The notes: a model not told the origin generated them from the letters alone. 64,000 nt of DNA from Candidatus Saccharimonadota bacterium (GCA_046350735.1 JAXLZU010000001.1:684462-748461), one strand, 5' to 3'. Positions 13,670 through 61,969 are shown, counted from the first letter of the stretch. Program-made: numbers and translations.

Positions 13670-13746
13670 GGGCGCGTAGCTCAGATGGTTAGAGCGCGTC
13701 ACTGATAATGACGAGGTCCCTGGTTCAATTCCAGGCGTGCCCACCA
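13670..13746 (+). tRNA. tRNA-Ile (anticodon GAT), CCA encoded.
   Basis: Cloverleaf read by hand: acceptor GGGCGCG/CGTGCCC, D-arm GCTC-AGATGGTTA-GAGC, anticodon arm CGTCA-CTGATAA-TGACG, T-arm CCTGG-TTCAATT-CCAGG, then ACCA. Confidence 0.9.
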
Positions 13747-13764
13747 GAAAAATATTTACAATAC

Positions 13765-13841
13765 GGGGCATTAGCTCAGCTGGCTAGAGCACCTGCTTTG
13801 CAAGCAGGGGGTCCGGGGTTCGAATCCCCGATGCTCCACCA
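13765..13841 (+). tRNA. tRNA-Ala (anticodon TGC), with the G3:U70 identity pair and CCA encoded.
   Basis: GGGGCAT...GCTC-AGCTGGCTA-GAGC...CCTGC-TTTGCAA-GCAGG...CGGGG-TTCGAAT-CCCCG-ATGCTCC-A-CCA. Confidence 0.9.
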
Positions 13842-16127: not shown

Positions 16128-17672
<1,545 letters not shown>

Positions 17673-17714
17673 AAAAAGAAAAGTGATCAAGACCACAAAG
17701 ACAACTATTTCTTT

Positions 17715-31362: not shown

Positions 31363-31983
31363 TTATTCAGTACGAAAACGGTTTAGGATAAGTTCGGCAG
31401 CAATTCCGAGAAGTGCACCGAGAACCAATAATATGGGTAAAAGCCAGCTGGGCATACCATAATTATAAAACCGAGCTATGGCATACACCGTTATACCGGC
31501 TGCCAACCCTACAACACTACCACCAATAAGGGCAGAGGGGCGCAAAATAGTCTTACCGGCAACATCAGAAACTTTTTCGACAGCGGGGTTATGAATAACT
31601 TTAGAGAACGTTCGGCTTCGGCGAGGCAATTGAGCCTGTACTATCTTTACTTCTTTTTTATATACTGCTGCTTTTTCTTTTTTTGTATAACTTGCAGCCG
31701 GTTTGGCTTTTGGCGGTTTTTTTTCTACTTTTTCGATTTTTTCGGCATCTTTGCGCTCACGTTCTAAATCGGCCTCGCGCTTCTTTTCGGCATCAGCCTC
31801 ACGCTTTTTTTCGGCACTTAGATTTCGCTCGGCAGCCTCATGGCGACGAGCCAAATCTTTTTCACCAGCTTCTATCTCGGCCTTACTAACCTCTGGAGCT
31901 TTCTCTTTTTCGAGTTTTTTTAGCTGGCTTACTTCGAGTTTCTCGGCGCCACTCTCTGGCTCTAGTTCGGCTCTATCTGCCAT
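31363..31983 (-). CDS. Charged coiled-coil protein with two C-terminal TM helices. Possibly a reversed-topology stator/stalk-like component of cluster 2.
   Basis: Highly charged E/K/R-rich repeats (AEKKREADAEKKREADLERERKDAEKIEK), then TM helices GGSVVGLAAGITVYAI and WLLPILLVLGALLGIAAELIL. Overlaps the upstream gene by 1 nt. Confidence 0.35.
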   Translation of the reverse strand: MADRAELEPESGAEKLEVSQLKKLEKEKAPEVSKAEIEAGEKDLARRHEAAERNLSAEKKREADAEKKREADLERERKDAEKIEKVEKKPPKAKPAASYTKKEKAAVYKKEVKIVQAQLPRRSRTFSKVIHNPAVEKVSDVAGKTILRPSALIGGSVVGLAAGITVYAIARFYNYGMPSWLLPILLVLGALLGIAAELILNRFRTE

Positions 31984-34334
31984 TAGTTTCCTCCTTCGTT
32001 ATCAGATAATGTTTCAACTAATTTTAGCTCGCGTTTGAGTAATCTATTTCGGAAGAAGAGGAATACAGAGCTTGCAGCAAAGAATGAGATAACAAAGATT
32101 GGTACACCTGCACCGGTTTGCGGTAATTTTTGAGCTGCACATTCTACTTGTTTCGCCGGAACAACACCAATTGGGGTAGTTACAATCGATCCATGGAAGT
32201 TATCTTGAATATTACAGTCATAGGCTGAAGGGTCGAGTGGCACATTTGGTTTGGTAGGAATTGGGTCTTTTACTTTAACGGTAAATGATTTAAAGTGCGC
32301 GCTAAAGTTAGCAGGGATAATATTACCAGAGCTATCTGTACACGATTGTCCATTTGGTAGCGATGCTATATCGGTAGCTGGCCAGACGAGCTTTGTCTGT
32401 CCATTAGTTACTACCTTTGTCGCTCCGCCAAGATCTGCTAAATCAGCATAGTAGAGTAGATCGGTAACATCATCTTCAAACACAAATTGATTAATAGGGG
32501 CACCATTGGCATTACACACAGCTATCTGGTAGCGCAGTGTGTCACCGGCTTTAGCAACTTGATTGTTTGCATCAGTTGGTTTACCGTCGTTTGTCAGCAA
32601 GGTCATATTGGCTACGTTTTTGGTGTATTGTACCTGGGTTGGGTTAATAATTGTCTTACAAGTCTGGGCGTTGGTAGTTGTACCCCTGTCGGTTGTTATA
32701 CTAACTGTCGCCGTATATTTACCCGGATTATTATAGTCGTGTTTTGTAGTTGCTGTGAGTTGATTACTACTAATAGTCTGCTTGGCACTCCCATCGCCAA
32801 AATCAAATTCATAAGATTTAACGGTGGCATTTTTTACAGTGGCAGTTGCTGTTAGATTAACACCTTTAAGGGGTGCTGCTCCGGTTGCAGGGTCGGCAGT
32901 TAGGCTCTTACATGCAAACTCTGCAGGTGGCGGAGTAGTAGTAAATGGTACATAACAGTTATTGGGGTTTTCTGGTGCTGTTACTCCATTCTGATCTGTA
33001 ACTCGTAATATTATCAAGAAATCACCAGGTGTAGTTTGTCTAAATTCGGTTGCAGAAAAAGCTGGACTACTAGCCGGATCAGTATAAACAGCCGGGTTAG
33101 TATTGGTATGAGTAATTCTCGTGCTACCACCACTTGGGTTACCTTCTAAATATTTAACTCCATTATATGTAATGATAGGTAAGCTCGGATTATCTGGGCC
33201 AGTATATTTTTGCAAAAGAATGTAGTCAAACTTAGACGGGTATGGCTTTGTACCAGAAACACCATCGACACCTGCGGTTCCCTTTAGACCAGGAGTAAAG
33301 GGTGTATCACCAGTCTTAGCAACAATATCGAGCTGTGCGCATTTAAGTGTCATTTGTTGGGTCACTCTAACCGTTCGAATACAATCTCCTGCTGCACTAC
33401 CAGCAGCAAATAGTTTTTGTCCGTTATTATCGTAAGCAACCAATAAGCGCAAGCTATAGTCTCCAGGCTGAGAAAAAGTAAAGCTTCTTCCAACATTATC
33501 AATAAAATTATTGTTGCTATCATGCCCCACCCCAGATGCTTGCAAAACATTTCCAGGCGAAACACCTCCAGCCAAATTATCTGTGTTGACATTATAGGCA
33601 CCATATGCCATATCAACCAATTCACCTGCACTAATATTATCTCCATGTGCATAGCCAGCAACTACAATTGGCTGACCCACCGTGGCGGTAAAGCTAGAAA
33701 CATTTAGGCTAGAGCAAGTAATAGTTTTGGGCTGTTCTTGTGGTGTTGTAGGAATAAACACCAAATTACCACAGTCATAAAGTATACCTACTTGATACCA
33801 TGCATTTGGGTCACCAGTACCTATAGTACTACCCTGTACTTTTACATTGAGTAGTTCGCCTGCAAAACAGTTTTGCAACCATCTACTACTGGCGTCTCCT
33901 ATCCATATATCATTATGGCCTGGGTATAAGAACGACCCAGGTGCTTGAGTGCGTCCCATAGAAAGCAATCCTGGTGTTCGGCAAATATTAGCATTTGCCT
34001 GTCCATTCAAAACATCCTGATCAGTTACCCCAGCCTGGTACAAGAGCTGCATTGCACCTGTACTCTTAAAAGCATTTAATACGCCTTGGTTGCTTGTATC
34101 GGCAATACCGCAGTTAATAATATCGTTTGCTGTACAGCTCGCCGCTCGTCCTGCTGATGGCGGTGCGATAAAAGTAATAAACTGAAAGACTAATAGCCCT
34201 ACAAGTAGTAGTGATGCTAGACGTCGGGCGGATGTCTCTTTGGTGAGACGCTTGGCATAGAATGAGATTTTGTTTTTTGTGATGCCGCCAATTTTAAAAT
34301 TGGTTACGACATCCCGGAAATTTACGATTTTCAT
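31983..34334 (-). CDS. LPXTG-anchored surface protein with a PKD domain (783 aa).
   Basis: N-terminal TM/signal. PKD signature YEFDFGDGSAKQ...HDYNNPGKYTATVSITTD. C-terminal sorting signal LPQTG plus a hydrophobic stretch plus RNRLLKR. Confidence 0.65.
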   Translation of the reverse strand: MKIVNFRDVVTNFKIGGITKNKISFYAKRLTKETSARRLASLLLVGLLVFQFITFIAPPSAGRAASCTANDIINCGIADTSNQGVLNAFKSTGAMQLLYQAGVTDQDVLNGQANANICRTPGLLSMGRTQAPGSFLYPGHNDIWIGDASSRWLQNCFAGELLNVKVQGSTIGTGDPNAWYQVGILYDCGNLVFIPTTPQEQPKTITCSSLNVSSFTATVGQPIVVAGYAHGDNISAGELVDMAYGAYNVNTDNLAGGVSPGNVLQASGVGHDSNNNFIDNVGRSFTFSQPGDYSLRLLVAYDNNGQKLFAAGSAAGDCIRTVRVTQQMTLKCAQLDIVAKTGDTPFTPGLKGTAGVDGVSGTKPYPSKFDYILLQKYTGPDNPSLPIITYNGVKYLEGNPSGGSTRITHTNTNPAVYTDPASSPAFSATEFRQTTPGDFLIILRVTDQNGVTAPENPNNCYVPFTTTPPPAEFACKSLTADPATGAAPLKGVNLTATATVKNATVKSYEFDFGDGSAKQTISSNQLTATTKHDYNNPGKYTATVSITTDRGTTTNAQTCKTIINPTQVQYTKNVANMTLLTNDGKPTDANNQVAKAGDTLRYQIAVCNANGAPINQFVFEDDVTDLLYYADLADLGGATKVVTNGQTKLVWPATDIASLPNGQSCTDSSGNIIPANFSAHFKSFTVKVKDPIPTKPNVPLDPSAYDCNIQDNFHGSIVTTPIGVVPAKQVECAAQKLPQTGAGVPIFVISFFAASSVFLFFRNRLLKRELKLVETLSDNEGGN

Positions 34335-34415
34335 CTTTCCCCTTTAAATATACAATTGCTTATGCTTTATTGTAGTACACACTACAATAGCTATGCAAGA
34401 CTTAAGAAGAAGTAA

Positions 34416-36920
34416 TTAATTTCCGGTCTGTTCTGTACCCATTCCGCCTGCCGCAGCAGTTCCGCCCGCAGGCTCACTTGGCAAGCTATCACTAAGGCTC
34501 TGGGCTATCTCTGCATCAACTTCGGCTTTGGGACGGCCATACTTGGCTCGTGAAAGATCGCGCATAGCGTTTTGTAGGTTGGTATTAATAACATTACCAT
34601 CCACCGGTGGGTCTCCATGCAGACTAAATGGAGTAGTTGGGATTCCATCGGCTATTATTTTGGCAGCAGCATAATGATTGGGTATATTCGCAATATCACT
34701 GGCGTCAAATTGTGGTGAGAATTGCTTGGCAATATATTCTGCATCATCATTACCTACTCGGTAAATAACCATACTTCCCACATTACCAAAAACCGCATCC
34801 CGAATTTGCTCGTCTATTTGCTCAATATACTGGTTAGCTACTATAAGATTAAAGTGATACTTTCGTGCTTCAGAGAGAATGGTTGCAAAACTATCAGTTG
34901 CAATATTCTGAAACTCATCGACATACAGAGCAAAGTCTACACGCTGATCTTCTGGTGTATCGGCTCGGCTCATAGCTGCCATTTGTAGCTTAATAACAAA
35001 TATCATACCAAGTAATTTAGCATTCAACTCACCAAGCAACCCCTTACTGAGGTTGGCTATCAAAATCTTATTAGTATCCATTATTTGGCGAAAATTAAAG
35101 GCAGAGGTTTTTTGTCCAATAATATTTCTAAGCATGGCGTTATTTGCAAAAGCACCAAACTTCGAAACAAACCATCCTAGCATCTCACTCTTAGAATGTG
35201 CATCTGTCTGGGCCATTTCGCCAGTCCAGAAATCTTGCACAGTTGGGTCGGTAACATATTTGAATTTCTTTTTTAAATACTCGTCATCAGTAAACACTTT
35301 TGGTATTTCTATAAATGTACCGCCCTCCGGATCAGCCATAACCGTTAGGGCAGCATTGCGAAACCAGTGTTCGTAGCGTGGACCAATAATACCTTGATGC
35401 TGCGGGTCGTAGAGTTTATACAGCATTGAGATGGCCTCTTGCACCAAGAAGTCACGCTGCTCTGGGTGGTTGCGATCATACTCCATAATATTAAACCCAA
35501 GAGGAAACTCCGTATCTCCTGGACTAAAATAAATAACATCTTCCGCTCGATTTGCTGGAATTCGTCCTAAAAATTTTTCGGCCTCATCACCATTAGGGTC
35601 GATAAAACAAAACCCTTTACCCGCATAGGCATCTTGCAACATCAAATTTGTCAGTAAGGTTGATTTACCGGTACCAGTCTGACCAATCGTATAAATATGT
35701 CGTCGCTTATCGTCTTGCGTAATATAGATAGGAGTATTCGTACCTCTATACTCATTTATGCCAATCCGTAATCCCTCTGTTGGTAATCCTGCCGGTGCTG
35801 GGACTTCTTTTACCGCCTTTCGCTCTAAATGGGTAGCAATACCAATTACCTCGCTTGGTAAATGAAATATCGTGGCCAACTCGACTGCATTTAATACATT
35901 TTTCTTTTTATTAGCCGGAAAAAAACGAAAGATAAAATTGGTTGCTATCTCTTGTGGAGAGTCAGCACTTTGGTATTTAAACCCATTACTACCACCTTGG
36001 CTAAGCTGTGAGAATCCAAGCTGCATATCTTGTATCATTACATGGGCCCGAGCAGGATTGTCAGAGCTAGCTATAAGACGAATACATGTTTCAAAAGCTG
36101 GTGACTTCGCCTTGTCTTCTATGGTCTCGCTCTTGCGTTGATCAATAGCAGTTGGCTGCTTATCGGGCTTCTTATCTTCGCTACCCGAACTGGGTGCCTT
36201 AAATGGCGCTCGTAATACGTCAGAACCAAAACTGAGCATTTTGTTTTCTGAACTACTTGGGTCTAAATGCTCTTTACTGCGTTTTAGAGCGTATTTTGTC
36301 CAGTCACTACCCGCTGGACGGATGAGAATTTGAATACCTATACCTTCACCCTCTCCAAGATTGGTGAGGCTCGATAATATTCCGGCTAGCGGATCGAAGT
36401 CGCTCGACTTATAGGTGTTAATTGGATAAATACTCTCTTTTGTTAATACAAGCTCACCACCCTGCACACCAGCAATTTTACTTTTATCAGAGAATATATT
36501 TGTTTCTTCGGCCTGTTCTATTTGAATGTCTGGATATCCTGCTACTAAGGCTTTTTGTACTGCACTCAGCAAACTAACAGGAACAACAATATAAAAGTGA
36601 ATCAACTTACCTTCGGCAATTATTTCGAGGCTGATATATTTTTTGCCATAATACGAAGCCTTTTCGGTGGCTATACCGCTTAATAGATTAAATACACCTT
36701 CGGCTTTGGCTATATTTTCTTTAATAAGTTCTCGACTATCTCTACTATCTTCGCTAACCTCTTGGGGAGGGAGTTTTACTAATAGTGGCACCATTTTTAG
36801 AGATCGTTCAATATCTTTGCTGTGTCGGGCGCGCTTGCGTAGCAAAAAATATGCCAATACACTTATGACGCTAGCAAATAGTACAAATAATATACTCGTA
36901 AAGATTACAAACTGATTCAT
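34416..36920 (-). CDS. Membrane-anchored P-loop ATPase of the FtsK/HerA superfamily, VirB4/VirD4 (TraG/TrbE)-like, 834 aa.
   Basis: N-terminal TM. Walker A IGQTGTGKSTLL followed by FIDPNGDE (the DPKGE-like motif of type IV secretion ATPases). Walker B ALYVDEFQNIA, then ARKYHFNLIVANQYIEQ (the R...ATQ/ANQ motif). Confidence 0.55.
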   Translation of the reverse strand: MNQFVIFTSILFVLFASVISVLAYFLLRKRARHSKDIERSLKMVPLLVKLPPQEVSEDSRDSRELIKENIAKAEGVFNLLSGIATEKASYYGKKYISLEIIAEGKLIHFYIVVPVSLLSAVQKALVAGYPDIQIEQAEETNIFSDKSKIAGVQGGELVLTKESIYPINTYKSSDFDPLAGILSSLTNLGEGEGIGIQILIRPAGSDWTKYALKRSKEHLDPSSSENKMLSFGSDVLRAPFKAPSSGSEDKKPDKQPTAIDQRKSETIEDKAKSPAFETCIRLIASSDNPARAHVMIQDMQLGFSQLSQGGSNGFKYQSADSPQEIATNFIFRFFPANKKKNVLNAVELATIFHLPSEVIGIATHLERKAVKEVPAPAGLPTEGLRIGINEYRGTNTPIYITQDDKRRHIYTIGQTGTGKSTLLTNLMLQDAYAGKGFCFIDPNGDEAEKFLGRIPANRAEDVIYFSPGDTEFPLGFNIMEYDRNHPEQRDFLVQEAISMLYKLYDPQHQGIIGPRYEHWFRNAALTVMADPEGGTFIEIPKVFTDDEYLKKKFKYVTDPTVQDFWTGEMAQTDAHSKSEMLGWFVSKFGAFANNAMLRNIIGQKTSAFNFRQIMDTNKILIANLSKGLLGELNAKLLGMIFVIKLQMAAMSRADTPEDQRVDFALYVDEFQNIATDSFATILSEARKYHFNLIVANQYIEQIDEQIRDAVFGNVGSMVIYRVGNDDAEYIAKQFSPQFDASDIANIPNHYAAAKIIADGIPTTPFSLHGDPPVDGNVINTNLQNAMRDLSRAKYGRPKAEVDAEIAQSLSDSLPSEPAGGTAAAGGMGTEQTGN

Positions 36921-36947
36921 ATAATAATTCGCTCAGACGGTTGGTTA

Positions 36948-37403
36948 TTACGAAACATCTAGATTAAACCGCTGTTTTTGATATGCCCGACTAACTATGT
37001 TGTGATCGATATCTTCTGTAAGGGGGTCGTCTTCGTCTTTTTCTATGACCTGGTCTACAGTATCGACCCATTCTTTCTCTATTAAATCATCATCACTAGC
37101 CGATAGACTTGCTAAATCTTGGGCCTGTAGGGCCCGTCCTTGTACGCTACCTGTATGAACCACTTGTGCTGGTGGTGGAGGGCTAAGAAGGCTAGAATTA
37201 ACAGCATCTGATTGTGCATTTGGATCTACTGTCGTAGTAGCGGGTGCAGGAGCAGCTTCTACCTGCCCGGTGAGACTCTCGGCAGTAGGGGGGGTAGTTG
37301 GTTGCAAATTGGGTGCACTTGCCCGCTGAGCAGCAATCTGTTCTATAGTTGGCTGCGGATTTGGCGCAACATTTGGGCTAGAGGGAGTTTGTTGGGGATC
37401 CAT
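36948..37403 (-). CDS. Pro/Ala/Gln-rich acidic hypothetical protein.
   Basis: 151-aa low-complexity ORF upstream of the ATPase gene. Confidence 0.3.
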   Translation of the reverse strand: MDPQQTPSSPNVAPNPQPTIEQIAAQRASAPNLQPTTPPTAESLTGQVEAAPAPATTTVDPNAQSDAVNSSLLSPPPPAQVVHTGSVQGRALQAQDLASLSASDDDLIEKEWVDTVDQVIEKDEDDPLTEDIDHNIVSRAYQKQRFNLDVS

Positions 37404-37446
37404 GCCCTATATTATACCAGTTATGTTTATACGAGACTATATCGAC

Positions 37447-38949
37447 TTAACTATGTACCCAAACAGGTGTGCCAACAGGTGCCCAGCCATATAAGAATGC
37501 TGCAGAACTAGCAGACATATTCACACAGCCGTGACTACCATTGTAGTAATAGTCAGATCCGCCATAACCCGAGCGCCATCTATCTGCATCGTGCAAACCA
37601 TAACCGTTATAAAACGGCATCCAGTAATCAACAAAAACATTGTAGTTATATCCATACTGCGCACCATTAAGGTATCTGCTACGTTCTTTGGCATAAATTG
37701 CAAATGTACCAGTTACGGTACCAAATCCCGCACCCGTTGCACCGCTGGTAATAGGGGCATTAAAGACAACTTGTCCATCTTGCCAGGCCCAGAGATGCTG
37801 CTGGCGCAATGATACTTCAATATATTGTGGGTAATCTAAGCCACCAATTCCTCCAAAAGCATTTGTCTGAGTCTTAAAGGCTACCGGTGAAGCATTTAGA
37901 TTAAAGCTAATGTCTTGATTAGCATTCAGCCCGGCCACTATTGCGTCAATTGCTGGCCCCTGATTAACCGCCAGACCATCAACACCTTCTTGAGTTACCG
38001 AGCTAGTGCCATTGGCTACTGTTATTATTTTGTTTTTTGGTGCAATATTTATTTGGTTTGCAACTGACTGAACATAACCCGCAACTTGCTCTGGAGATAT
38101 TTTAGCAACTAAATGTTTTTTATCATCCTGCCCATCTTGCACTTCAAAAACTATCATATGCCCAATAGCATTCTTATCGGCAATAAAACTTTTGCCGTTG
38201 TACGTCAAAACAATTTGTTTGCTCAAAAGCATCTCAGCACTAGCACGGGCTGCAGACAAATCAGCTACTTGAATATCGGCCTTTTGTACCTCTGGGCGTA
38301 ATGTAATGTTTTCGTCTTGACCATCACTCAGTGCCGACTGAATGATTTTACTTAGAGCTTTCTGGTCTATTCGCAATCCATCTTGGTCTGGCTGGTCGGT
38401 AATAACACCTTCATTTATCACTAGCGTAGCATTAATAGGGTCATGACCAACTGAATCTACCACAGAAGAAGTAAAAGCTTTTAGTTTTACCAGGTCTAGA
38501 TTGTACGCCAACCCTAACTGACCGTTTCTCTCACTGGCAAAAATACCAAAGATTGGTAAAAGTGAATTTTTACCTACGCTGTAGGCAGTATTAGCTGTAG
38601 TAATCAAATCATAATTCGACCCCAATTCTGTATCGGTGGTTGTAAACACCTTATCGCCGACCTTGAGGGTAAAGTTACGTTTGGTTTCTATTTGACGCAA
38701 ACTCTGAATGGCTTCAGCTCGGGTTTTAAAACTTAGATCGTGGCCAGCCACCGACACACCTGGGTAAATCCTGCCAGTTAATAGAGCTGCCACAATACCG
38801 TTAATACAAAGAAACGCTAATAGTGCCCCTAGTACTACGAATTGTATTCTAGCCACGGGACTTGGCTTTTGGCCAGACTTGCTTAACGACTTTGGCAGAG
38901 CAAAGCGATGTGTATAAGGTGGGGTATTAGGTTGCTGTTGTTTTGGCAT
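37447..38949 (-). CDS. L,D-transpeptidase (YkuD/ErfK family) with an N-terminal TM anchor and a large extracytoplasmic domain.
   Basis: C-terminal catalytic motif YGLHDADRWRSGYGG...YNGSHGCVNM (H...SHGC) and a TM near the N-terminus. Confidence 0.6.
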   Translation of the reverse strand: MPKQQQPNTPPYTHRFALPKSLSKSGQKPSPVARIQFVVLGALLAFLCINGIVAALLTGRIYPGVSVAGHDLSFKTRAEAIQSLRQIETKRNFTLKVGDKVFTTTDTELGSNYDLITTANTAYSVGKNSLLPIFGIFASERNGQLGLAYNLDLVKLKAFTSSVVDSVGHDPINATLVINEGVITDQPDQDGLRIDQKALSKIIQSALSDGQDENITLRPEVQKADIQVADLSAARASAEMLLSKQIVLTYNGKSFIADKNAIGHMIVFEVQDGQDDKKHLVAKISPEQVAGYVQSVANQINIAPKNKIITVANGTSSVTQEGVDGLAVNQGPAIDAIVAGLNANQDISFNLNASPVAFKTQTNAFGGIGGLDYPQYIEVSLRQQHLWAWQDGQVVFNAPITSGATGAGFGTVTGTFAIYAKERSRYLNGAQYGYNYNVFVDYWMPFYNGYGLHDADRWRSGYGGSDYYYNGSHGCVNMSASSAAFLYGWAPVGTPVWVHS

Positions 38950-39005
38950 AACTACCTGGTAATTTTAGTATTGTCTATTATTATACCTCTTATGCTTAGA
39001 AAAAG

Positions 39006-41789
39006 TCAGACTATTTTACTCTTACTTATAGTGTTGCTCGTTAACAACCCGTTTTCTATGCTGTTCATATGCTTTGCTATCTCCTTCTGACTAGGGTTAG
39101 CTCCACAATCTATCCAAATTCTCATACTTACCCGCTTCTTATTCGCGCCAGCTAGTTCTTCGCTGGTGAATTCTTGGATAAATTGTATGCGAGATACATG
39201 TTTTTGCGATTTTGTAATCAATGCAATATCTTGCCAAAGAATTTCATTAGATAATTCTAACGTAAGATCTCGACTAACAAGTTGGTAGGGGAGAGATGGT
39301 ACCGATTTTTGGGCAATTTCGGTAAAGATAGATTGATCGGGCAAAGTTAGTTCTGCAAAACTTACTTCTTCATTAATTGAGAATTTTTTTAGACAAACAG
39401 GTTTTATTTGTCCATAAACTCCTTTTACCTCGGGTATACGCTGGCTTTGCAAAATAGCAGTTCTACCAGCCAAGAAATTGTCTTCTTCACTCCGGCTATA
39501 TGTAAAGGCCAGTTGATAACGACTTTCACACATATCGAGTACACTCTTTATTCTCTCAAGCCCGTTTTGACCAACTGCAGTTATTGCCAATCGCCAACCT
39601 TCTTCTGCTAGTGTCTTCGAGCGAGGAGATTTATTATAGATTCGTGCAAGCTCAAAGAATCCATACTCTTTTTGATAAAATGTATTGTTTCGCGCTGCTG
39701 TCTGCAAATGACTACTTAAGAGTGAGTTGCGCAAATAGGCTTGTTCTTTACTCATAGGGTTTTCTATTGCCAGCACACTAGTTGGATCAATAGTAGTGTC
39801 TAGCAGATCTTGCTGACTAACAAAAGAGTATGTAGTTACTTCAAATAGTCCAGCTGCTACCAAATCTTCGCGCATACCCATTAGCCCGGGTAACATCTGA
39901 TGATCAGACGTTTCCATAGGAGGTAATTCGGGCAATTCGCTCGGCATATTTTCATAACCCACTATCTTAGCTGCCTCTTCTATCAGGTCGACTTCTTTGG
40001 TAATATCAGTACGCCACCAGGGTGCAACAACTGCAATTATATGATTAAAGCTACTAACATAACGCCGTGCTCCTTTAAAACTAGGGTTAGTAGTATAACT
40101 TTCGAGTGATGTATAGCGCACATCGGCCGTTTTGCGCTGTTTATATCTACCAGTTTTAGCATCAAACTCATATTCGCTAGCCTCTATAACTTGGTTTTTA
40201 CCCAAATACATACCAACATGCCCTATATCGCCGCGGCTTTTGGCGTCTAATTTTTCCCAGTGCCCAGAGTAAAATAGCAGATCTCCAGGCTTGAGATTAT
40301 CTTTGTCGACAGGCTTTCCAGAGTTAAATTGTTGCTGTGCAGTGTGCCCAATAGTTATACCAATTTTTGAATATATTCTCTCTACTAAATACGAGCAGTC
40401 AAAAGCGTCTTCGCCGTTTTTCTTAAAGCTAGCACCATATACATAGGGTTTACCAAGATGTTTTTTAGCCTCGCTCGAGAGAGAAAAGTGTTCTGCACTA
40501 AACCCACGCGCACGCAACCCTTCAATTATTTCTTTTTCATTCAGCTTTGTACCAAGCACCATTTCTGCCCGGCGCTGACGCAAACCAACATACGATATCC
40601 ATGGCCATGCATATAATTGATCATTTACTTCATCAAGCAACTCGGCATGACAAATTTCTTTCAATAATTGTGCAGCTCGCTCAAAAGCAAAACAGGGAAG
40701 GGGGAGTGGGAGACCTTTCTCGAATCGAGTACTTGCCTCAGAACGTAAGCCGTGACGCAGTGCACTTCTTCGAATAGTAGTTTTATTAAAGTTAGCAACT
40801 TCTAAGACAATCTCTTGTGTTTGGTTACTTACTTCGCTACTGGCTCCACCCATTACACCTGCCAGTCCAATGGCACCCGAATTATCTGCAATCACTAAGT
40901 CCTCTTTGCTTAGCTTTCTTTCTACGCCATCCAAAGTAGAGAGGGCTTCACCGGCTTTGGCAAATCGCACCTGCAAAGCACCACTAAGTTTTTTTCTATC
41001 ATAAGCATGACTTGGTTGGCCAGTTTCTAACATCACATAGTTAGTAATATCTACAACGGGGTGAATAGCACGCATCCCTGAAGCTTCTAAGTTTTCCACA
41101 ATCCAAGCCGGAGTCTCGACATTGTTATTAATACGAAATGCTGCGCTGACAAATCGCTCACACTCCCCAGTTTCCTTGACTTTCACCACTTCTCTGTTTT
41201 TATATTCAATTTTCTGTCGTTCTGGTTCTACAATCTGGTTTTTAGAAGAATTAGCAGAAATTTCGCGCGCCAAACCCAAAACCGACAATAAGTCCCACCG
41301 GTTTGCAGGCGTCTTAACATCCACAATATCGGTCATATTCTCTATGTCGCACAATGATATTCCAAGGGGGAGATCAGGGTCGAGCTCTAACAAGCCGGTA
41401 TGGTCACTACCCATGCCTAGCTCTTTTGCCGATGCCAGCATTCCGGCCGACATTTCGCCACGAATTTCTCGCTCACCAATTACAAAATCTTCCGGTAAGA
41501 CACTACCGGGCTGAGCATATGCTACCACCAAACCTTTTCGAACATTGGGCGCGCCGCAGACAACTCGACGTGTAGTGTTGCCAAACTCTATATCTACCAA
41601 GTGTAATTTATCAGCATTTGGATGGTCTATTACATTTACCACTTTGGCAATAATTACTTTTTTATCTAACTTGGGTGGCGTAATAACTTCTTCTATTTCT
41701 ACCTCGGTACGCTCTAATGCTGCCACAATCTCATCAGTAGAAAGAGATTTTTTTAGATAACGATTTAGCCATTGTATACGTACTTTCAT
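39006..41789 (-). CDS. pheT: Phenylalanine--tRNA ligase beta subunit, with a roughly 150-aa NlpC/P60-like insertion inside the B5 domain.
   Basis: N-terminal tRNA-binding domain, B3/4, B5 flanks (LRQRRAEMVLG...IIEGLRARGF / IIAVVAPWWRTDITKEVDLIEEAAKIVGYENMP), catalytic-like core and C-terminal anticodon-binding domain. 927 aa. Confidence 0.9.
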   Translation of the reverse strand: MKVRIQWLNRYLKKSLSTDEIVAALERTEVEIEEVITPPKLDKKVIIAKVVNVIDHPNADKLHLVDIEFGNTTRRVVCGAPNVRKGLVVAYAQPGSVLPEDFVIGEREIRGEMSAGMLASAKELGMGSDHTGLLELDPDLPLGISLCDIENMTDIVDVKTPANRWDLLSVLGLAREISANSSKNQIVEPERQKIEYKNREVVKVKETGECERFVSAAFRINNNVETPAWIVENLEASGMRAIHPVVDITNYVMLETGQPSHAYDRKKLSGALQVRFAKAGEALSTLDGVERKLSKEDLVIADNSGAIGLAGVMGGASSEVSNQTQEIVLEVANFNKTTIRRSALRHGLRSEASTRFEKGLPLPLPCFAFERAAQLLKEICHAELLDEVNDQLYAWPWISYVGLRQRRAEMVLGTKLNEKEIIEGLRARGFSAEHFSLSSEAKKHLGKPYVYGASFKKNGEDAFDCSYLVERIYSKIGITIGHTAQQQFNSGKPVDKDNLKPGDLLFYSGHWEKLDAKSRGDIGHVGMYLGKNQVIEASEYEFDAKTGRYKQRKTADVRYTSLESYTTNPSFKGARRYVSSFNHIIAVVAPWWRTDITKEVDLIEEAAKIVGYENMPSELPELPPMETSDHQMLPGLMGMREDLVAAGLFEVTTYSFVSQQDLLDTTIDPTSVLAIENPMSKEQAYLRNSLLSSHLQTAARNNTFYQKEYGFFELARIYNKSPRSKTLAEEGWRLAITAVGQNGLERIKSVLDMCESRYQLAFTYSRSEEDNFLAGRTAILQSQRIPEVKGVYGQIKPVCLKKFSINEEVSFAELTLPDQSIFTEIAQKSVPSLPYQLVSRDLTLELSNEILWQDIALITKSQKHVSRIQFIQEFTSEELAGANKKRVSMRIWIDCGANPSQKEIAKHMNSIENGLLTSNTISKSKIV

Positions 41790-42772
41790 ACAAATTGCTC
41801 CAAGAATTCAAAACGTGGTCGCCATAGCTCGCGTAAGTCATCAAGTCCATATTTAATTGCAGCAATTCGCTCGGCACCCCAACCAAATGCAAAACCAGTG
41901 TATTTTTCAGGATCAATACCGCCATTTTGCAATACCACTGGGTTAATCATTCCAGCTCCACCCAATTCGAGCCATTGGCCTTTATAGCGACAGTCAAGTT
42001 CTACCGAAGGCTCGGTGTACGGAAAATAACTTGGCCTAAATCGTATGTCAGCCTCTGGCCCCAAGATACCCTGTACTACATGTAAGAGTGTTCCTTTTAG
42101 TTGTGCCATCGAAACTCCCTCACCCACTACAAGCCCTTCAATCTGATGGAATGCCCAAATATGAGTTACGTCCTCGTCTTCATTTCGAAATACTCTACCT
42201 GGTACAATAATTTTAAATGGTGGCTTATTGGCCTCCATAAACCGTACTTGCATTCCAGATGTATGGGTACGAGGCAGAACATCTAACTTGCCGTTGTTTT
42301 TTATGTAAAATGTGTCTTGCATCTCACGTGCGGGGTGAGATGCCGGCATATTAAGAGCTTCAAAGTTGTACCAATCTGTTTCTATCTCGCTACTATCTAC
42401 AACTGCAAATCCTAAATCTGAAAAGATTTTGTAGGTTTCTTGTAATACTCTGCTGGCAGGATGCATATGTCCGTAAGGCTGTTCAAACCTTTCACCAGGT
42501 AGAGAGATATCTTTTATAGGAAACTGTTGCGATGCCACAAGCTGTTCACGCGCTTCTGTAATAGCGTGTTCTATTTGGTTTTTTAATACGTTTAGGTCTT
42601 TACCCTTCTTGGCTTTCTCTTCTGTACTTAAGCCAGGCAACAAACGGAGTTGCTCAGATATAAAACTATTACTACCGAGATACTTAGATTTAACCTGAGC
42701 AATGGCGTGCTCATTACTCGCCTGCTTTAAATCAGCCTCCAGGTTTTTAAGAATGTTGGTTTGAGAGGTCAT
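41786..42772 (-). CDS. pheS: Phenylalanine--tRNA ligase alpha subunit.
   Basis: Class II motifs FRPSYFPYTEPSVELD and GFAFGWGAERIAAIKYGLDDLR. Confidence 0.9.
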   Translation of the reverse strand: MTSQTNILKNLEADLKQASNEHAIAQVKSKYLGSNSFISEQLRLLPGLSTEEKAKKGKDLNVLKNQIEHAITEAREQLVASQQFPIKDISLPGERFEQPYGHMHPASRVLQETYKIFSDLGFAVVDSSEIETDWYNFEALNMPASHPAREMQDTFYIKNNGKLDVLPRTHTSGMQVRFMEANKPPFKIIVPGRVFRNEDEDVTHIWAFHQIEGLVVGEGVSMAQLKGTLLHVVQGILGPEADIRFRPSYFPYTEPSVELDCRYKGQWLELGGAGMINPVVLQNGGIDPEKYTGFAFGWGAERIAAIKYGLDDLRELWRPRFEFLEQFV

Positions 42773-43479: not shown

Positions 43480-44751
43480 TTACATACCATTTTTAGGCAA
43501 GCCGATATCATTTCGGTACTGCATGCCACTAAATTCTATCTTTTTAATTGCACAATAAGCCTTATTTCTTGCCTCCTCAATAGAATTGCCATATGCTGTA
43601 ACGCTTAATACTCTTCCGCCGCTCGATAATAAGGTTTTTTCTTCTCGTTTAGTGCCGGCATGGAATACTACAACGTTATCCTTGTGATTTACGCTTTTTA
43701 CGCCTTTAATAGCTCTTCCTGTCTGTGTATTAACAGGGTAGCCAGCTGAAGCTAATGTTACACATATACCATAGCCATTTTTCCAGACTAGCTCAGTTTC
43801 AGACAGGTTTTCTTCTGTGCAGCGCCACAGCATATCAAAAAGGTCACTTTCTAATAATCTCATGTAGGTTTGACATTCAGGATCACCAAAACGTGCATTA
43901 TATTCAATTACCTTAATCCCCTTCTTAGTAATCATTAATCCTGGATACAAACAACCAATAAAAGGATGTCCTACTTTTGCCAACTCATCAATAATTGGCT
44001 TTACAATCTTCTGACCAATAAATGTGAGATCTTTGGCACTTAAAACATCTACAGGGGCCACAACACCCATACCGCCGGTATTTGGCCCCTTATCACCATC
44101 ATAAATAGCCTTATTGTCCTGACTAATAGGAAACAGCTCGAAATTTTTACCATCACAAATAGCATGCACCGAAAGTTCATACCCAGTCAAATACTCTTCA
44201 ATAATTACGGTATTTCCAGATTCACCAAACATATGCTCCAGCATAACCCTCTTCAACCAGTCCTGTGCTTCATTAAGTGAGTTACAAATAGATACTCCTT
44301 TGCCTAACGCTAAGCCGCTAGCTTTTAGTACTAACGGAAACTCTTGTTTCGACAAATAATCGAGCGCTTTATAATAATCGGTAAATACCCGGAAACTTGC
44401 TGTTGGAATATTTAGTCGCTGCATTAGCTCTTTTGCAAAAGATTTAGAAGATTCTATCTGGGCAGTATGTTTGTCCGGGCCAAAAATACGTAAGCCAGAC
44501 CTTCTAAATTCGTCTGTCACTCCTGCAGCCAAAGCATCATCGACACCTACCACCGTAAGGTCTATTAACTTCTCTCGAGCAAACATAACCAAGTTTTTTA
44601 TATCAGTTGGAGAGATTGCAATATTCTTGCCAAGTTCTTCTGTACCACCATTACCGGGTGCAAAAAATAATTCACTAACCTTTTTAGATTGCTTTAGTTT
44701 CCAACCTAAAGCATGTTCTCTACCTCCACCGCCAATAATTAATACCTTCAT
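43480..44751 (-). CDS. purD: Phosphoribosylamine--glycine ligase.
   Basis: MKVLIIGGGGREHALGWKL and an ATP-grasp core. The start is moved to the internal ATG at 44751; the ORF track starts 26 codons further upstream. Confidence 0.85.
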   Translation of the reverse strand: MKVLIIGGGGREHALGWKLKQSKKVSELFFAPGNGGTEELGKNIAISPTDIKNLVMFAREKLIDLTVVGVDDALAAGVTDEFRRSGLRIFGPDKHTAQIESSKSFAKELMQRLNIPTASFRVFTDYYKALDYLSKQEFPLVLKASGLALGKGVSICNSLNEAQDWLKRVMLEHMFGESGNTVIIEEYLTGYELSVHAICDGKNFELFPISQDNKAIYDGDKGPNTGGMGVVAPVDVLSAKDLTFIGQKIVKPIIDELAKVGHPFIGCLYPGLMITKKGIKVIEYNARFGDPECQTYMRLLESDLFDMLWRCTEENLSETELVWKNGYGICVTLASAGYPVNTQTGRAIKGVKSVNHKDNVVVFHAGTKREEKTLLSSGGRVLSVTAYGNSIEEARNKAYCAIKKIEFSGMQYRNDIGLPKNGM

Positions 44752-44829
44752 TACGCTTATCATAACAAAAAAAACCACCCTACTGGCAGTAAAGTGGTAA
44801 CTTTTCAACAAAATTTGGTTACGGGCCAA

Positions 44830-45390: not shown

Positions 45391-46374
45391 TTACAATAAA
45401 CCTATTTTGTCTTTTACTTCTCGCAGCTTTTCATTCGCAATTTCGGCCGCCTTAGCACTTCCTGAATCTATTACTTTGTCTAACATAGCTTCATTATCGC
45501 GAATTTTATAAAACTCAGCTTGTAGTTTTGTTAGCTTCTCTACTACCAACTCTGCTAGCTCAGATTTAAAGTCTCCATATCCCTTACCTATAAACCGCTT
45601 TTCTATTTGAGCGATATCTTCTCCGCTAAAGCCTGCATAAATCTCTAACAGATTAGAAACTGCTGGCTTACCCTTCTTGTCATATACTATCTTATTGTCC
45701 GAATCTGTAACAGCTCGTTTAAATTTCTTACGAATATCATCTGGTGTTTCGGCCAGCATTATAAAACTTTCTGGATGATCACTCTTACTCATTTTCTTGG
45801 TTGGATCATCAAGACTCATTATTCGAGCACCAGACTTTGGAATAGTTGCTTTCGGCAGAATAAAAGTATTACCATAGAGTCGATTAAATCTCTCTGCAAT
45901 GGTACGAGCAAGTTCTAAATGCTGCCGCTGATCTTCTCCAACAGGTACTTCATCTGCACTATAAAGCAAAATATCGGCTGCCATTAAGACTGGGTAGTTA
46001 AACAACCCAACCAATTGTCCCTCGGGGCCCAGTTTTTGTGACTTATCTTTATATTCAGTCATTCTTCCAAGCTCACCCATAGTCACGTAGTTATCGAGAA
46101 TCCAACACAGTTCGGCATGTGCAGCCACCTTAGACTGTACAAGTATAATCGATTGCTTTGGGTCTAAACCTACTGTAATAAGCCAGGCTACTAGATCATA
46201 TGTGCGTTTTTTTAGCTGTTCTGGATCTTGTCGGACTGTTATAGCGTGTGCATTAGGTACGAAGAAAATAGTCCGTGCCATACCTTGTTGAGACGGCCAA
46301 TACCTCATGGCTCCAAGATAATTACCAATTGTCATATCACCAGATGGTTTTAATCCTGAAAATACCGTTTTCAT
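45391..46374 (-). CDS. trpS: Tryptophan--tRNA ligase.
   Basis: Class I enzyme of the TrpS/TyrS type with the KMSKS motif (KKMSKSD). 327 aa. Confidence 0.9.
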   Translation of the reverse strand: MKTVFSGLKPSGDMTIGNYLGAMRYWPSQQGMARTIFFVPNAHAITVRQDPEQLKKRTYDLVAWLITVGLDPKQSIILVQSKVAAHAELCWILDNYVTMGELGRMTEYKDKSQKLGPEGQLVGLFNYPVLMAADILLYSADEVPVGEDQRQHLELARTIAERFNRLYGNTFILPKATIPKSGARIMSLDDPTKKMSKSDHPESFIMLAETPDDIRKKFKRAVTDSDNKIVYDKKGKPAVSNLLEIYAGFSGEDIAQIEKRFIGKGYGDFKSELAELVVEKLTKLQAEFYKIRDNEAMLDKVIDSGSAKAAEIANEKLREVKDKIGLL

Positions 46375-61570: not shown

Positions 61571-61969
61571 TGGTGGAGCTGGCGGGTTCTGCCCCCGCGT
61601 CCATACGGTTTGAAAAAATATCGTCTTCAAGCATAGTCGATTCTAATGGGATTTTACAAGCCCCAAGAGTGTAAAAAACCGACAAGAGCGCTCAAGTTGC
61701 TTGCTCTCTTTATTTTTCTTAGATCTCGCCCAGAGAGGTGGTAAGACCGCATCCAGATAATCGACGCTTGTTACCCTATCTGGTGTCTAGGTAGTAAGCG
61801 GCATAGCGTATTAGGCGTATGCTGGCGCAAGGCTAGGAGCTGCAAAAGCAGCCTTTACCTTGCTAATAAGTGTATTGGCACTTAAAGTGTTTTGGAACGG
61901 CTAACGTGCATTCCAGCCCGGCTTGCGAATATTTTTCAAAGTTCCATATGTCAAAGCTAATACAGCCCC
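61571..61969 (-). ncRNA. ssrA: tmRNA (transfer-messenger RNA).
   Basis: Minus-strand 5' GGGGCUGUAUUAGCUUUGAC... compares with E. coli GGGGCUGAUUCUGGAUUCGAC. The 3' ...GGACGCGGGGGCAGAACCCGCCAGCUCCACCA compares with E. coli GGACGCGGGUUCAACUCCCGCCAGCUCCACCA. There is a 7-bp acceptor with the G3:U pair, a T-arm GCGGG/CCCGC, and an internal tag-like frame ...AAFAAPSLAPAYA-stop preceded by UAAGU-GCC. A canonical promoter lies directly upstream, and smpB is in the window. Confidence 0.75.

Follow-up and report, generated by a model that had tools for sequence, protein, structure and literature searches.

The split B5 domain of PheT

The 64,000-nucleotide stretch of DNA analyzed here (the window; GCA_046350735.1, JAXLZU010000001.1:684462-748461) comes from a genome of Candidatus Saccharibacteria (TM7, Patescibacteria). 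It carries pheT, the gene for the beta subunit of phenylalanyl-tRNA synthetase (PheRS), in which a domain of the NlpC/P60 (C40) type is nested within the B5 domain. The gene was called as one unbroken open reading frame (ORF) of 927 amino acids (aa) on the minus strand, with pheS directly upstream. The two genes and the parts of B5 are as follows (positions counted from the first nucleotide of the window):

39006-41789, minus strand: pheT, PheRS beta subunit with the nested domain, 927 aa (TIGR00472, Pfam and full-length AlphaFold2 model)
41786-42772, minus strand: pheS, PheRS alpha subunit, 328 aa (ORF; its stop overlaps the pheT start)
40491-40607, minus strand: N-terminal part of B5, aa ~395-433, ending in strand beta431-435 ('GFSAE') (solved-chain alignment and model)
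40044-40490, minus strand: nested NlpC/P60 (C40) domain, aa 434-582, ~149 residues, replacing a B5 hairpin loop of ~7-10 residues
39954-40043, minus strand: C-terminal part of B5, aa 583-612, with strand beta584-589 and the motif 'PWWRTD...DLIEE' (Pfam, solved chains and model)

The product is a true bacterial PheT, encoded by a single, syntenic housekeeping gene. It matched the TIGR00472 pheT_bact equivalog model with 562 bits (cut-off 402.65), in two stretches, and its Pfam domains follow one another in the canonical order tRNA_bind, B3_4, B5 and CLM, with an additional NLPC_P60 match at aa 446-546. Proteins encoded at the pheS position of relatives contain Phe_tRNA-synt_N and tRNA-synt_2d, and the synteny of pheS and pheT is the same in the related loci L081-L085.

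The Pfam match to B5, at aa 582-612, is limited to the second half of the profile (positions 37-67), which indicates that this domain is split. Solved PheT chains from seven species aligned to the protein (E 9e-95) over aa 1-430 and then from aa 587 onward; across this gap their own numbering moves only from ~435 to 446, so that ~150 residues stand in for a hairpin loop of ~10. Pfam, the two-stretch match to TIGR00472 and the solved-chain alignment thus agree with the initial annotation, which had the insert interrupting B5 at aa 436-582 (40044-40484). Those boundaries were essentially exact and are revised here to aa 434-582 (40044-40490).

One relative lacks the insert altogether: this protein (P0112) reads GFSIEPTKAGADKILAV at the insert site and has an ancestral-type hairpin, RGFSIEPTKAGADKILAVEVPWWR, at the exact point of insertion. 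In the AlphaFold2 model of full-length PheT, with a predicted local distance difference test (pLDDT) score of 87.1, both strands of the B5 hairpin are kept, and beta431-435 and beta584-589 flank a well-ordered insert (pLDDT ~85-94). Nucleotide composition was uninformative as a test of foreign origin: the G+C content of the insert (0.41-0.42) is the same as that of its flanks.

The insert as an NlpC/P60 domain

The Pfam family PF00877 matched the whole of PheT with 64.9 bits (cut-off 23; E 7.6e-18) and the insert alone with 68.7 bits (E 4.9e-19). Several NCBIfam NlpC/P60 models also matched PheT, with E values of 1e-7 to 1e-15, as partial, domain-level matches. Against solved structures the insert sequence matched 30 NlpC/P60 chains, the best being 8v3w, 9ubf, 7cfl, 4hpe and 3h41 (E 2e-14 to 3e-10). 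An AlphaFold2 model of the insert, computed with an alignment of its relatives, reached a pLDDT of 91.2 and a predicted template modelling score (pTM) of 0.88. Foldseek comparison of this model with the PDB yielded 64 matches at E<=1e-3, and the best 50 of these 64 were all NlpC/P60 domains; superposition gave a probability of 1.0, root-mean-square deviations of 2.0-2.5 Å, template modelling (TM) scores up to 0.86 on the target and 22-32% sequence identity.

The residues at the three catalytic positions are encoded at:

40395-40397, minus strand: Cys465 (FDCSY), kept in 105/121 aligned relatives
40218-40220, minus strand: His524 (GHVGMY), kept in 106/121 aligned relatives
40182-40184, minus strand: Glu536 (QVIEAS), third catalytic position, at His + 12, aligned with solved homologues

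All three motifs, FDCSY, GHVGMY and QVIEAS, are among those by which the initial annotation had recognized an NlpC/P60 (C40) hydrolase, and profile, fold and residue-level evidence now converge on the same assignment. Cys465, His524 and Glu536 align with the Cys/His/His triad of 8v3w, 9ubf and 7cfl. The third position is variable: among the 104 inserts with both Cys and His it is occupied by Gln, His, Glu or Asp in 83 and by Met or Thr in 21. The order of Cys465 before His524 is canonical and not permuted. An acyltransferase of the permuted LRAT, H-rev107 or YaeF type was considered and ruled out by this order and by the match to the permuted C92 family, which is weak (24.1 bits in whole PheT, under the 27-bit cut-off) and, at 30.2 bits for the insert alone, partial, covering residues 8-52 only.

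In fold and in the order of Cys and His the insert resembles the NlpC/P60 DL-endopeptidases that cleave gamma-D-glutamyl-diamino-acid bonds, such as the C. difficile proteins Acd24020 (7cfl), Acd33800 (9ubf), CwlT-like CD630_03720 (4hpe) and diffocin hub-hydrolase (8v3w), the YkfC-like BCE_2878 of B. cereus (3h41), LytE, CwlO, MepS and RipA. It shares with them the motifs 'G.PY.WG', 'DCS', 'PGD..F' and 'H.G.Y.G', a C-terminal 'ARR(V/Y)' and a polar residue at His + 12. It differs in several respects. Those enzymes are secreted, lipoprotein-anchored or borne by phages or integrative and conjugative elements, whereas the insert is nested in a cytoplasmic aminoacyl-tRNA synthetase (aaRS) and, unlike the autolysins, has no signal peptide, SH3b, LysM or other wall-targeting domain. 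Glu or Gln is frequent at its third catalytic position, and type-specific extra hairpins lengthen the inserts to 135-190 aa. The 'PR(T)S' motif of the solved homologues, a region that presumably lines the substrate site, is replaced by 'GH(T)A' in the insert of the window and in 83/104 active inserts.

A Pfam scan of the whole of PheT revealed no SH3b, LysM or peptidoglycan-binding domain, the N-terminus being the PheT B1/B2 module, and neither PheT nor the insert alone bore a Hint/intein or homing-endonuclease signature in these scans. No aaRS editing fold of the CP1, INS/YbaK, N2, AlaX or DTD-like kind was found in the insert, which matched only NlpC/P60 and the related C92 family. There is no other NlpC/P60 gene in the 64-kb window or adjoining pheT in related loci. 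Judged by profile matches and models, the insert is thus a complete papain-like domain of the NlpC/P60 family (MEROPS C40) that folds as a module of its own and is apparently active.

Distribution among Saccharibacteria

The best 120 relatives of the window PheT, most of them, like the other sequences used here, from metagenomes, are 39-98% identical to it and 871-954 aa long. They belong to Candidatus Saccharibacteria wherever they are named; almost all carry PF00877, and the insert was present in 119/120. A scan of one genome per species with two restrictive peptide patterns, evaluated on the best 80 of 272 confirmed matches, found a full junction of B5 and insert in at least 68 loci, nearly all labelled Saccharibacteria, Saccharimonadia, Patescibacteria or plain 'bacterium'; the next matches were free-standing Bacillota NlpC/P60 genes with ~35-44% identity. 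One junction locus (L039, DATIHE010000064.1) is labelled 'Candidatus Nanoarchaeia archaeon' and contains a bacterial-type pheT with the full junction, 44% identical over residues 2-195; this contig is probably mis-binned or mislabelled Saccharibacteria. In a library of representatives at 50% identity, 26 proteins matched the insert at E<=1e-30 and ~35-40 representatives of PheT length bear it at residues ~430-600. Some of these genes have been named 'C40 family peptidase' or 'PheT-related protein' by NCBI.

The insert-free P0112 was itself used as a probe, which avoids a bias toward insert-bearing proteins. All of its ~118 nearest full-length relatives carry the insert and the synteny of its locus is the same as that of insert-bearing loci, from which we infer that P0112 represents a secondary, clean deletion. 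The insert is conserved across the clade and is ancestral to a large part of it. The initial annotation would have been refuted by a normal, widespread extension of B5 without similarity to NlpC/P60. Widespread it is, though only within Saccharibacteria; it is a genuine NlpC/P60 domain and not a generic B5 extension.

Exchange of insert variants between lineages

Comparison of related loci delimited the part of the insert that changes between close relatives:

40068-40415, minus strand: exchangeable cassette core, aa ~459-574, with edges at 'GKPY.WGA' and 'GARRY' (boundaries mapped in relatives)

The loci L081 and L082 share ~96% nucleotide identity over 14.8 kb and fall to 60-69% only at PheT codons ~453-574, with breakpoints in the conserved domain edges 'GKPYKWGA' and 'LGARRYV'. 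At the protein level, identity between P0016 and P0017 is 96% in the backbone but 59% within the insert; the corresponding values are 87% and 49% for P0022 and P0033, and 93% and 45% for P0069 and P0100, which pair an active with a degenerate insert. The converse was observed as well: 153-residue inserts with a Cys/His/His triad share 80-91% identity in proteins whose backbones share no more than ~50-65%.

The tree of PheT without the insert disagrees with insert type (trees were built by neighbour-joining on p-distance-derived distances). When the inserts were grouped into 30 types at 60% identity, parsimony on the backbone tree required 39 type changes against a minimum of 29, that is ~10 extra switches; shuffled labels required ~88.

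Among the dated pairs only L004/L005, two species-level genomes, gave a clean signal of recent transfer. Four-fold degenerate sites in this pair are 0.94 identical in the insert core (n=50) and 0.53 in the backbone (n=274; Fisher p 4e-9). The core lies within a shared tract that is 93-100% identical over codons ~391-690, and the rest of pheT is 56-81% identical except for two short blocks, at codons ~151-180 and ~211-240, with 89-94% nucleotide identity. Recombination is therefore not confined to the insert, yet it moves insert variants between lineages. Taken together, these comparisons indicate that insert variants have been swapped between lineages by homologous recombination and that pheT in L004/L005 is, as read from its identity profile, a recombination mosaic beyond the insert.

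Since most relatives come from metagenome-assembled genomes or metagenome contigs, and the swap boundaries lie in conserved sequence, where assemblers can cross over, the fusion or the swaps could in principle be assembly chimeras. We find this hardly credible. The ORF in the window is continuous, in frame and of normal composition; hundreds of assemblies from independent sources (NCBI, JGI, ENA and Logan) contain the same architecture; the exact P0016 protein occurs on two contigs and the P0017 cluster has three member sequences; and swaps recur in several unrelated pairs.

Constraint and decay

Constraint was assessed in species pairs that share an insert type and are equally saturated at four-fold synonymous sites. 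In L021/L034 the core is 95% identical at the amino acid level against 77% for the backbone, at four-fold identities of 0.44 and 0.43; L015/L021 shows the same pattern (95% against 78%), as do several further pairs. Dating of such deep pairs by synonymous sites was abandoned, four-fold sites being saturated (~0.25-0.45) inside and outside the insert. The deep same-type pairs speak for stronger constraint and not for recent transfer. The ratio of core to backbone divergence in active same-type pairs had a median of 0.61 (n=199), a value biased downward by pre-filtering for core identity >0.6. The active insert is thus, as far as substitution patterns tell, under stronger purifying selection than the PheT average.

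In one subclade the Cys/His pair has been lost repeatedly, and catalytic state changes ~7 times on the backbone tree. Degenerate pairs had a median divergence ratio of 1.97 (n=29), so divergence rises roughly threefold after loss of Cys and His. These inserts have shrunk to ~103-132 aa, and the missing segment includes the Cys-bearing stretch. They are still NlpC/P60 homologues (hhalign probability 99.9%, E 1.4e-34), 11/12 matching PF00877 at E<=1, and they retain the motifs 'GMEVP', 'LKPGD' and 'ARRY'. Catalytic loss and the one clean deletion, with synteny kept, demonstrate that the insert is dispensable in some lineages.

These patterns bear on two explanations that do not require catalysis. 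The domain could act in ligand binding, regulation or as a scaffold, binding a murein fragment or a partner and coupling it to PheRS, with catalysis secondary. Lineages without Cys and His do keep a recognizable NlpC/P60 scaffold of ~110-130 residues with conserved motifs, and non-catalytic NlpC/P60 proteins exist, RipD (4jxb) being among the fold matches of the insert. However, ~87% of the sequences sampled still have Cys and His, even between deeply diverged lineages, the tripling of divergence after their loss ties most of the constraint to catalysis, and one lineage deleted the domain cleanly; a primarily binding role is in our estimation rather improbable.

Alternatively, the insert could be a selfish or neutral mobile element, akin to a non-splicing intein, that persists because the gene it occupies is essential and that recombination spreads. 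Like inteins and other nested mobile domains, it sits in an essential protein, at a site that is conserved, and has, through horizontal exchange, a phylogeny incongruent with that of its host protein; transfer of the cassette is documented above. In contrast to inteins, it has no Hint or homing endonuclease (Pfam detected only NLPC_P60 and the weak, related C92), remains part of the mature protein, shows clade-wide fixation and not a sporadic occurrence, and is constrained like an enzyme. At equal synonymous divergence its amino acid sequence, catalytic residues included, is more constrained than that of the host protein, which a non-splicing parasite would not need, and recombination tracts extend beyond the insert, as L004/L005 (codons ~391-690) shows. 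We consider this explanation very improbable.

A real function of the insert is instead suggested by the conjunction of constraint tighter than that of the synthetase, variants traded between lineages and an approximately threefold relaxation after catalytic loss.

The editing site of PheRS and a possible role on tRNA

According to the solved-chain alignment the window PheT contains H261, E330, S350 and A352, the equivalents of the editing-site residues H265, E334, T354 and A356 of the E. coli beta subunit. Across 121 relatives, the B3/B4 residues are conserved as His in 121/121, Glu in 115/121, Thr or Ser in 121/121 and Ala in 115/121. Thr replaces the editing-site Glu (the position of aa 330) in P0025, P0055, P0058, P0063, P0110 and P0112; these six variants include the most eroded insert (P0110), the insert-free P0112 and four active inserts. 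The Thr-for-Glu lineages may be editing-deficient.

Backbone differences between members of swap pairs are about twice as frequent in the B3/B4 loops aa 299-306 and 318-328 (window ~40806-40895) as in same-type pairs, 33/673 (4.9%) against 48/1891 (2.5%), in a comparison that was made post hoc and on pairs that are not independent. This enrichment could mean that the insert touches the editing domain; it is too weak to use.

The thiol domain might have as its target the ester linkage of aminoacyl- or peptidyl-tRNAPhe, serving either in additional editing (of D-aminoacyl, meta-tyrosyl or N-acyl species) or by transferring Phe via a thioester to an acceptor. Its residence in an aaRS, a class of enzymes whose editing domains are classically inserted modules, the strong constraint on its catalytic residues and the post hoc loop enrichment described above (4.9% against 2.5%) would all accord with such a role. 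The editing domains of other aaRSs (CP1 of Leu/Ile/ValRS, INS/YbaK of ProRS, N2 of ThrRS and B3/B4 of PheRS) are likewise nested, hydrolase-type and clade-conserved; the insert differs from them in that its fold is unrelated, it is swappable and repeatedly inactivated, and the editing site of PheT itself is intact. With canonical B3/B4 residues in nearly all members there is no gap for it to fill. Furthermore, every one of its closest relatives is an amidase or peptidase of peptidoglycan, its Cys-then-His order is not that of a permuted LRAT-type acyltransferase, and cassettes only ~50% identical are interchangeable on one backbone, which argues against an intimate, co-evolved interface, as do the ~7 changes of catalytic state and the domain deletion against the role as a whole. 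We therefore regard an action on tRNA as unlikely. The initial annotation had offered an acquired editing or trans-acylase-like module and a moonlighting domain as alternatives. The former finds no support, and the intact B3/B4 residues, the exchange of the domain between divergent backbones, and catalytic loss and deletion without loss of pheT speak against it; the latter fits better.

Gene neighbourhood and other features of the window

The C-terminal anticodon-binding FDX-ACB domain of PheT (B8; aa 835-908, window 39006-39290) scored below the Pfam threshold (22.8 against 31.1 bits), and a precomputed PF03147 match exists in some relatives only; this domain appears from such profile scores to be divergent across the clade.

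The downstream neighbour of pheT is included for context only:

37447-38949, minus strand: PG_binding_4 and YkuD L,D-transpeptidase protein, 500 aa (Pfam)

An L,D-transpeptidase gene of the YkuD type lies directly 3' of pheT in ~49/62 related loci and is absent next to pheT in deep-branching lineages that carry the insert. A functional link between this gene and the insert was therefore set aside, and we read their adjacency as inherited gene order.

The order around pheT (window 31983-42772, minus strand) is conserved in L081-L085: a small transmembrane protein, pheS, pheT, the PG_binding_4 and YkuD L,D-transpeptidase, a small low-complexity protein (135-152 aa, without a Pfam match), a homologue of TraG/VirD4-like coupling proteins (DUF8128/T4SS-DNA_transf, ~810-834 aa) and a PKD-domain protein. 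A complete purD, for phosphoribosylglycinamide synthetase (43480-44829, minus strand; GARS_N/A/C, E 1e-70), separates the pheS cluster from a gene for a class Ib aaRS (45391-46374); in L081 and L082 the equivalent place is a stretch of ~1 kb without a called gene. As a rule, Saccharibacteria are said to lack de novo purine synthesis, so a complete purD was unexpected. The window further contains a full-length bacterial 16S rRNA gene (16131-17676, minus strand; 1494 bits), a transfer-messenger RNA gene (61571-61969, minus strand) and two adjacent tRNA genes (13670-13838, plus strand).

A putative function and its implications

Saccharibacteria are amino-acid-auxotrophic epibionts. By analogy with its nearest relatives, we tentatively interpret the insert as a cysteine amidase or peptidase of the cytoplasm, carried as a passenger on PheRS and perhaps acting on murein peptides in the manner of YkfC, an interpretation to which we would give not quite an even chance. 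The passenger enzyme would ride on PheRS outside the aminoacylation and editing cycle. With His524 activating and Glu536 orienting it, the thiolate of Cys465 would attack an amide bond of a small substrate, probably the gamma-D-glutamyl-diamino-acid bond in free murein peptides, as in B. subtilis YkfC, and peptides of the cell wall could thereby be recycled or scavenged by the epibiont. We favour free murein peptides, or else a related gamma-glutamyl amide, on account of the activity of the nearest relatives and the auxotrophic, epibiotic lifestyle. Weakest in this reading are the choice of substrate and the reason why the enzyme should reside in PheT.

The nearest functional analogy is provided by YkfC and the cyanobacterial AvPCP and NpPCP (2hbw, 2evr), NlpC/P60 enzymes that act on free L-Ala-gamma-D-Glu-diamino-acid peptides in a role that we take to be intracellular; 3h41, 2hbw and 2evr are among the Foldseek matches of the insert. 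Those enzymes are separate proteins in which an N-terminal SH3b domain reads the free L-Ala N-terminus, whereas the insert is part of PheT and has no SH3b. A precedent for the fusion is the glutathionylspermidine synthetase/amidase (Gss) of E. coli, in which a cytoplasmic, papain-like gamma-glutamyl amidase (CHAP, of the NlpC/P60 superfamily) is fused to an ATP-dependent ligase. In Gss the two domains are joined end to end and their activities are coupled; the domain in PheT is nested and without known coupling.

Several points weigh against a murein-peptide amidase carried as a passenger. Nothing explains why such an enzyme should sit inside PheT and not in a gene of its own, and an unregulated DL-endopeptidase in the cytoplasm could attack UDP-N-acetylmuramyl (UDP-MurNAc)-peptide precursors. 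The change from 'PR(T)S' to 'GH(T)A' suggests that specificity may differ from that of classical DL-endopeptidases, and the scaffolds retained after catalytic loss hint at an additional, non-catalytic role. The downward bias of the divergence ratio belongs here as well. Finally, with a pTM of 0.57 for the full-length model the relative placement of the domains is unreliable, and the insert could lie close to the tRNA 3' end.

A catalytic or sensory module of a previously unknown kind, embedded in an aaRS, is a doubtful alternative. In one version it could be a Cys-dependent hydrolase or transferase acting on acylated or misacylated tRNAPhe; in the other, a domain that binds and cleaves murein peptides could couple wall turnover, or wall peptides of the host, to translation in the epibiotic Saccharibacteria. 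If either were true, the repeated cassette swaps would reflect selection by different hosts or substrates.

No description of an NlpC/P60 domain in the PheRS beta subunit was found in the searchable full-text literature, in which mentions of PheRS concerned only the pheS counter-selection marker, alpha/beta homology and the B2 domain. Both component families are well known, and the Pfam domain is already annotated on these proteins in databases. What appears to be new, going by the comparisons made here, is the presence of a domain of the papain-like peptidoglycan-peptidase type in the B5 hairpin of the PheRS beta subunit, its conservation across Saccharibacteria and its exchange as a cassette.

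In practical terms, annotation pipelines mislabel some insert-bearing pheT genes. Few proteins are as conserved as the aminoacyl-tRNA synthetases, and new catalytic domains are seldom found nested in them; where they are, they usually say something about function. In the present case a whole lineage of ultra-small, host-dependent bacteria of a candidate phylum keeps an apparently active cysteine peptidase of the cell-wall type in its only PheRS. Active, inactivated and deleted alleles on near-identical backbones constitute a natural experiment, in a group that has been reported to be genetically tractable. The finding could bear on how domains become nested and exchanged in essential genes, and on the handling of peptidoglycan peptides, or translational quality control, in these epibionts.

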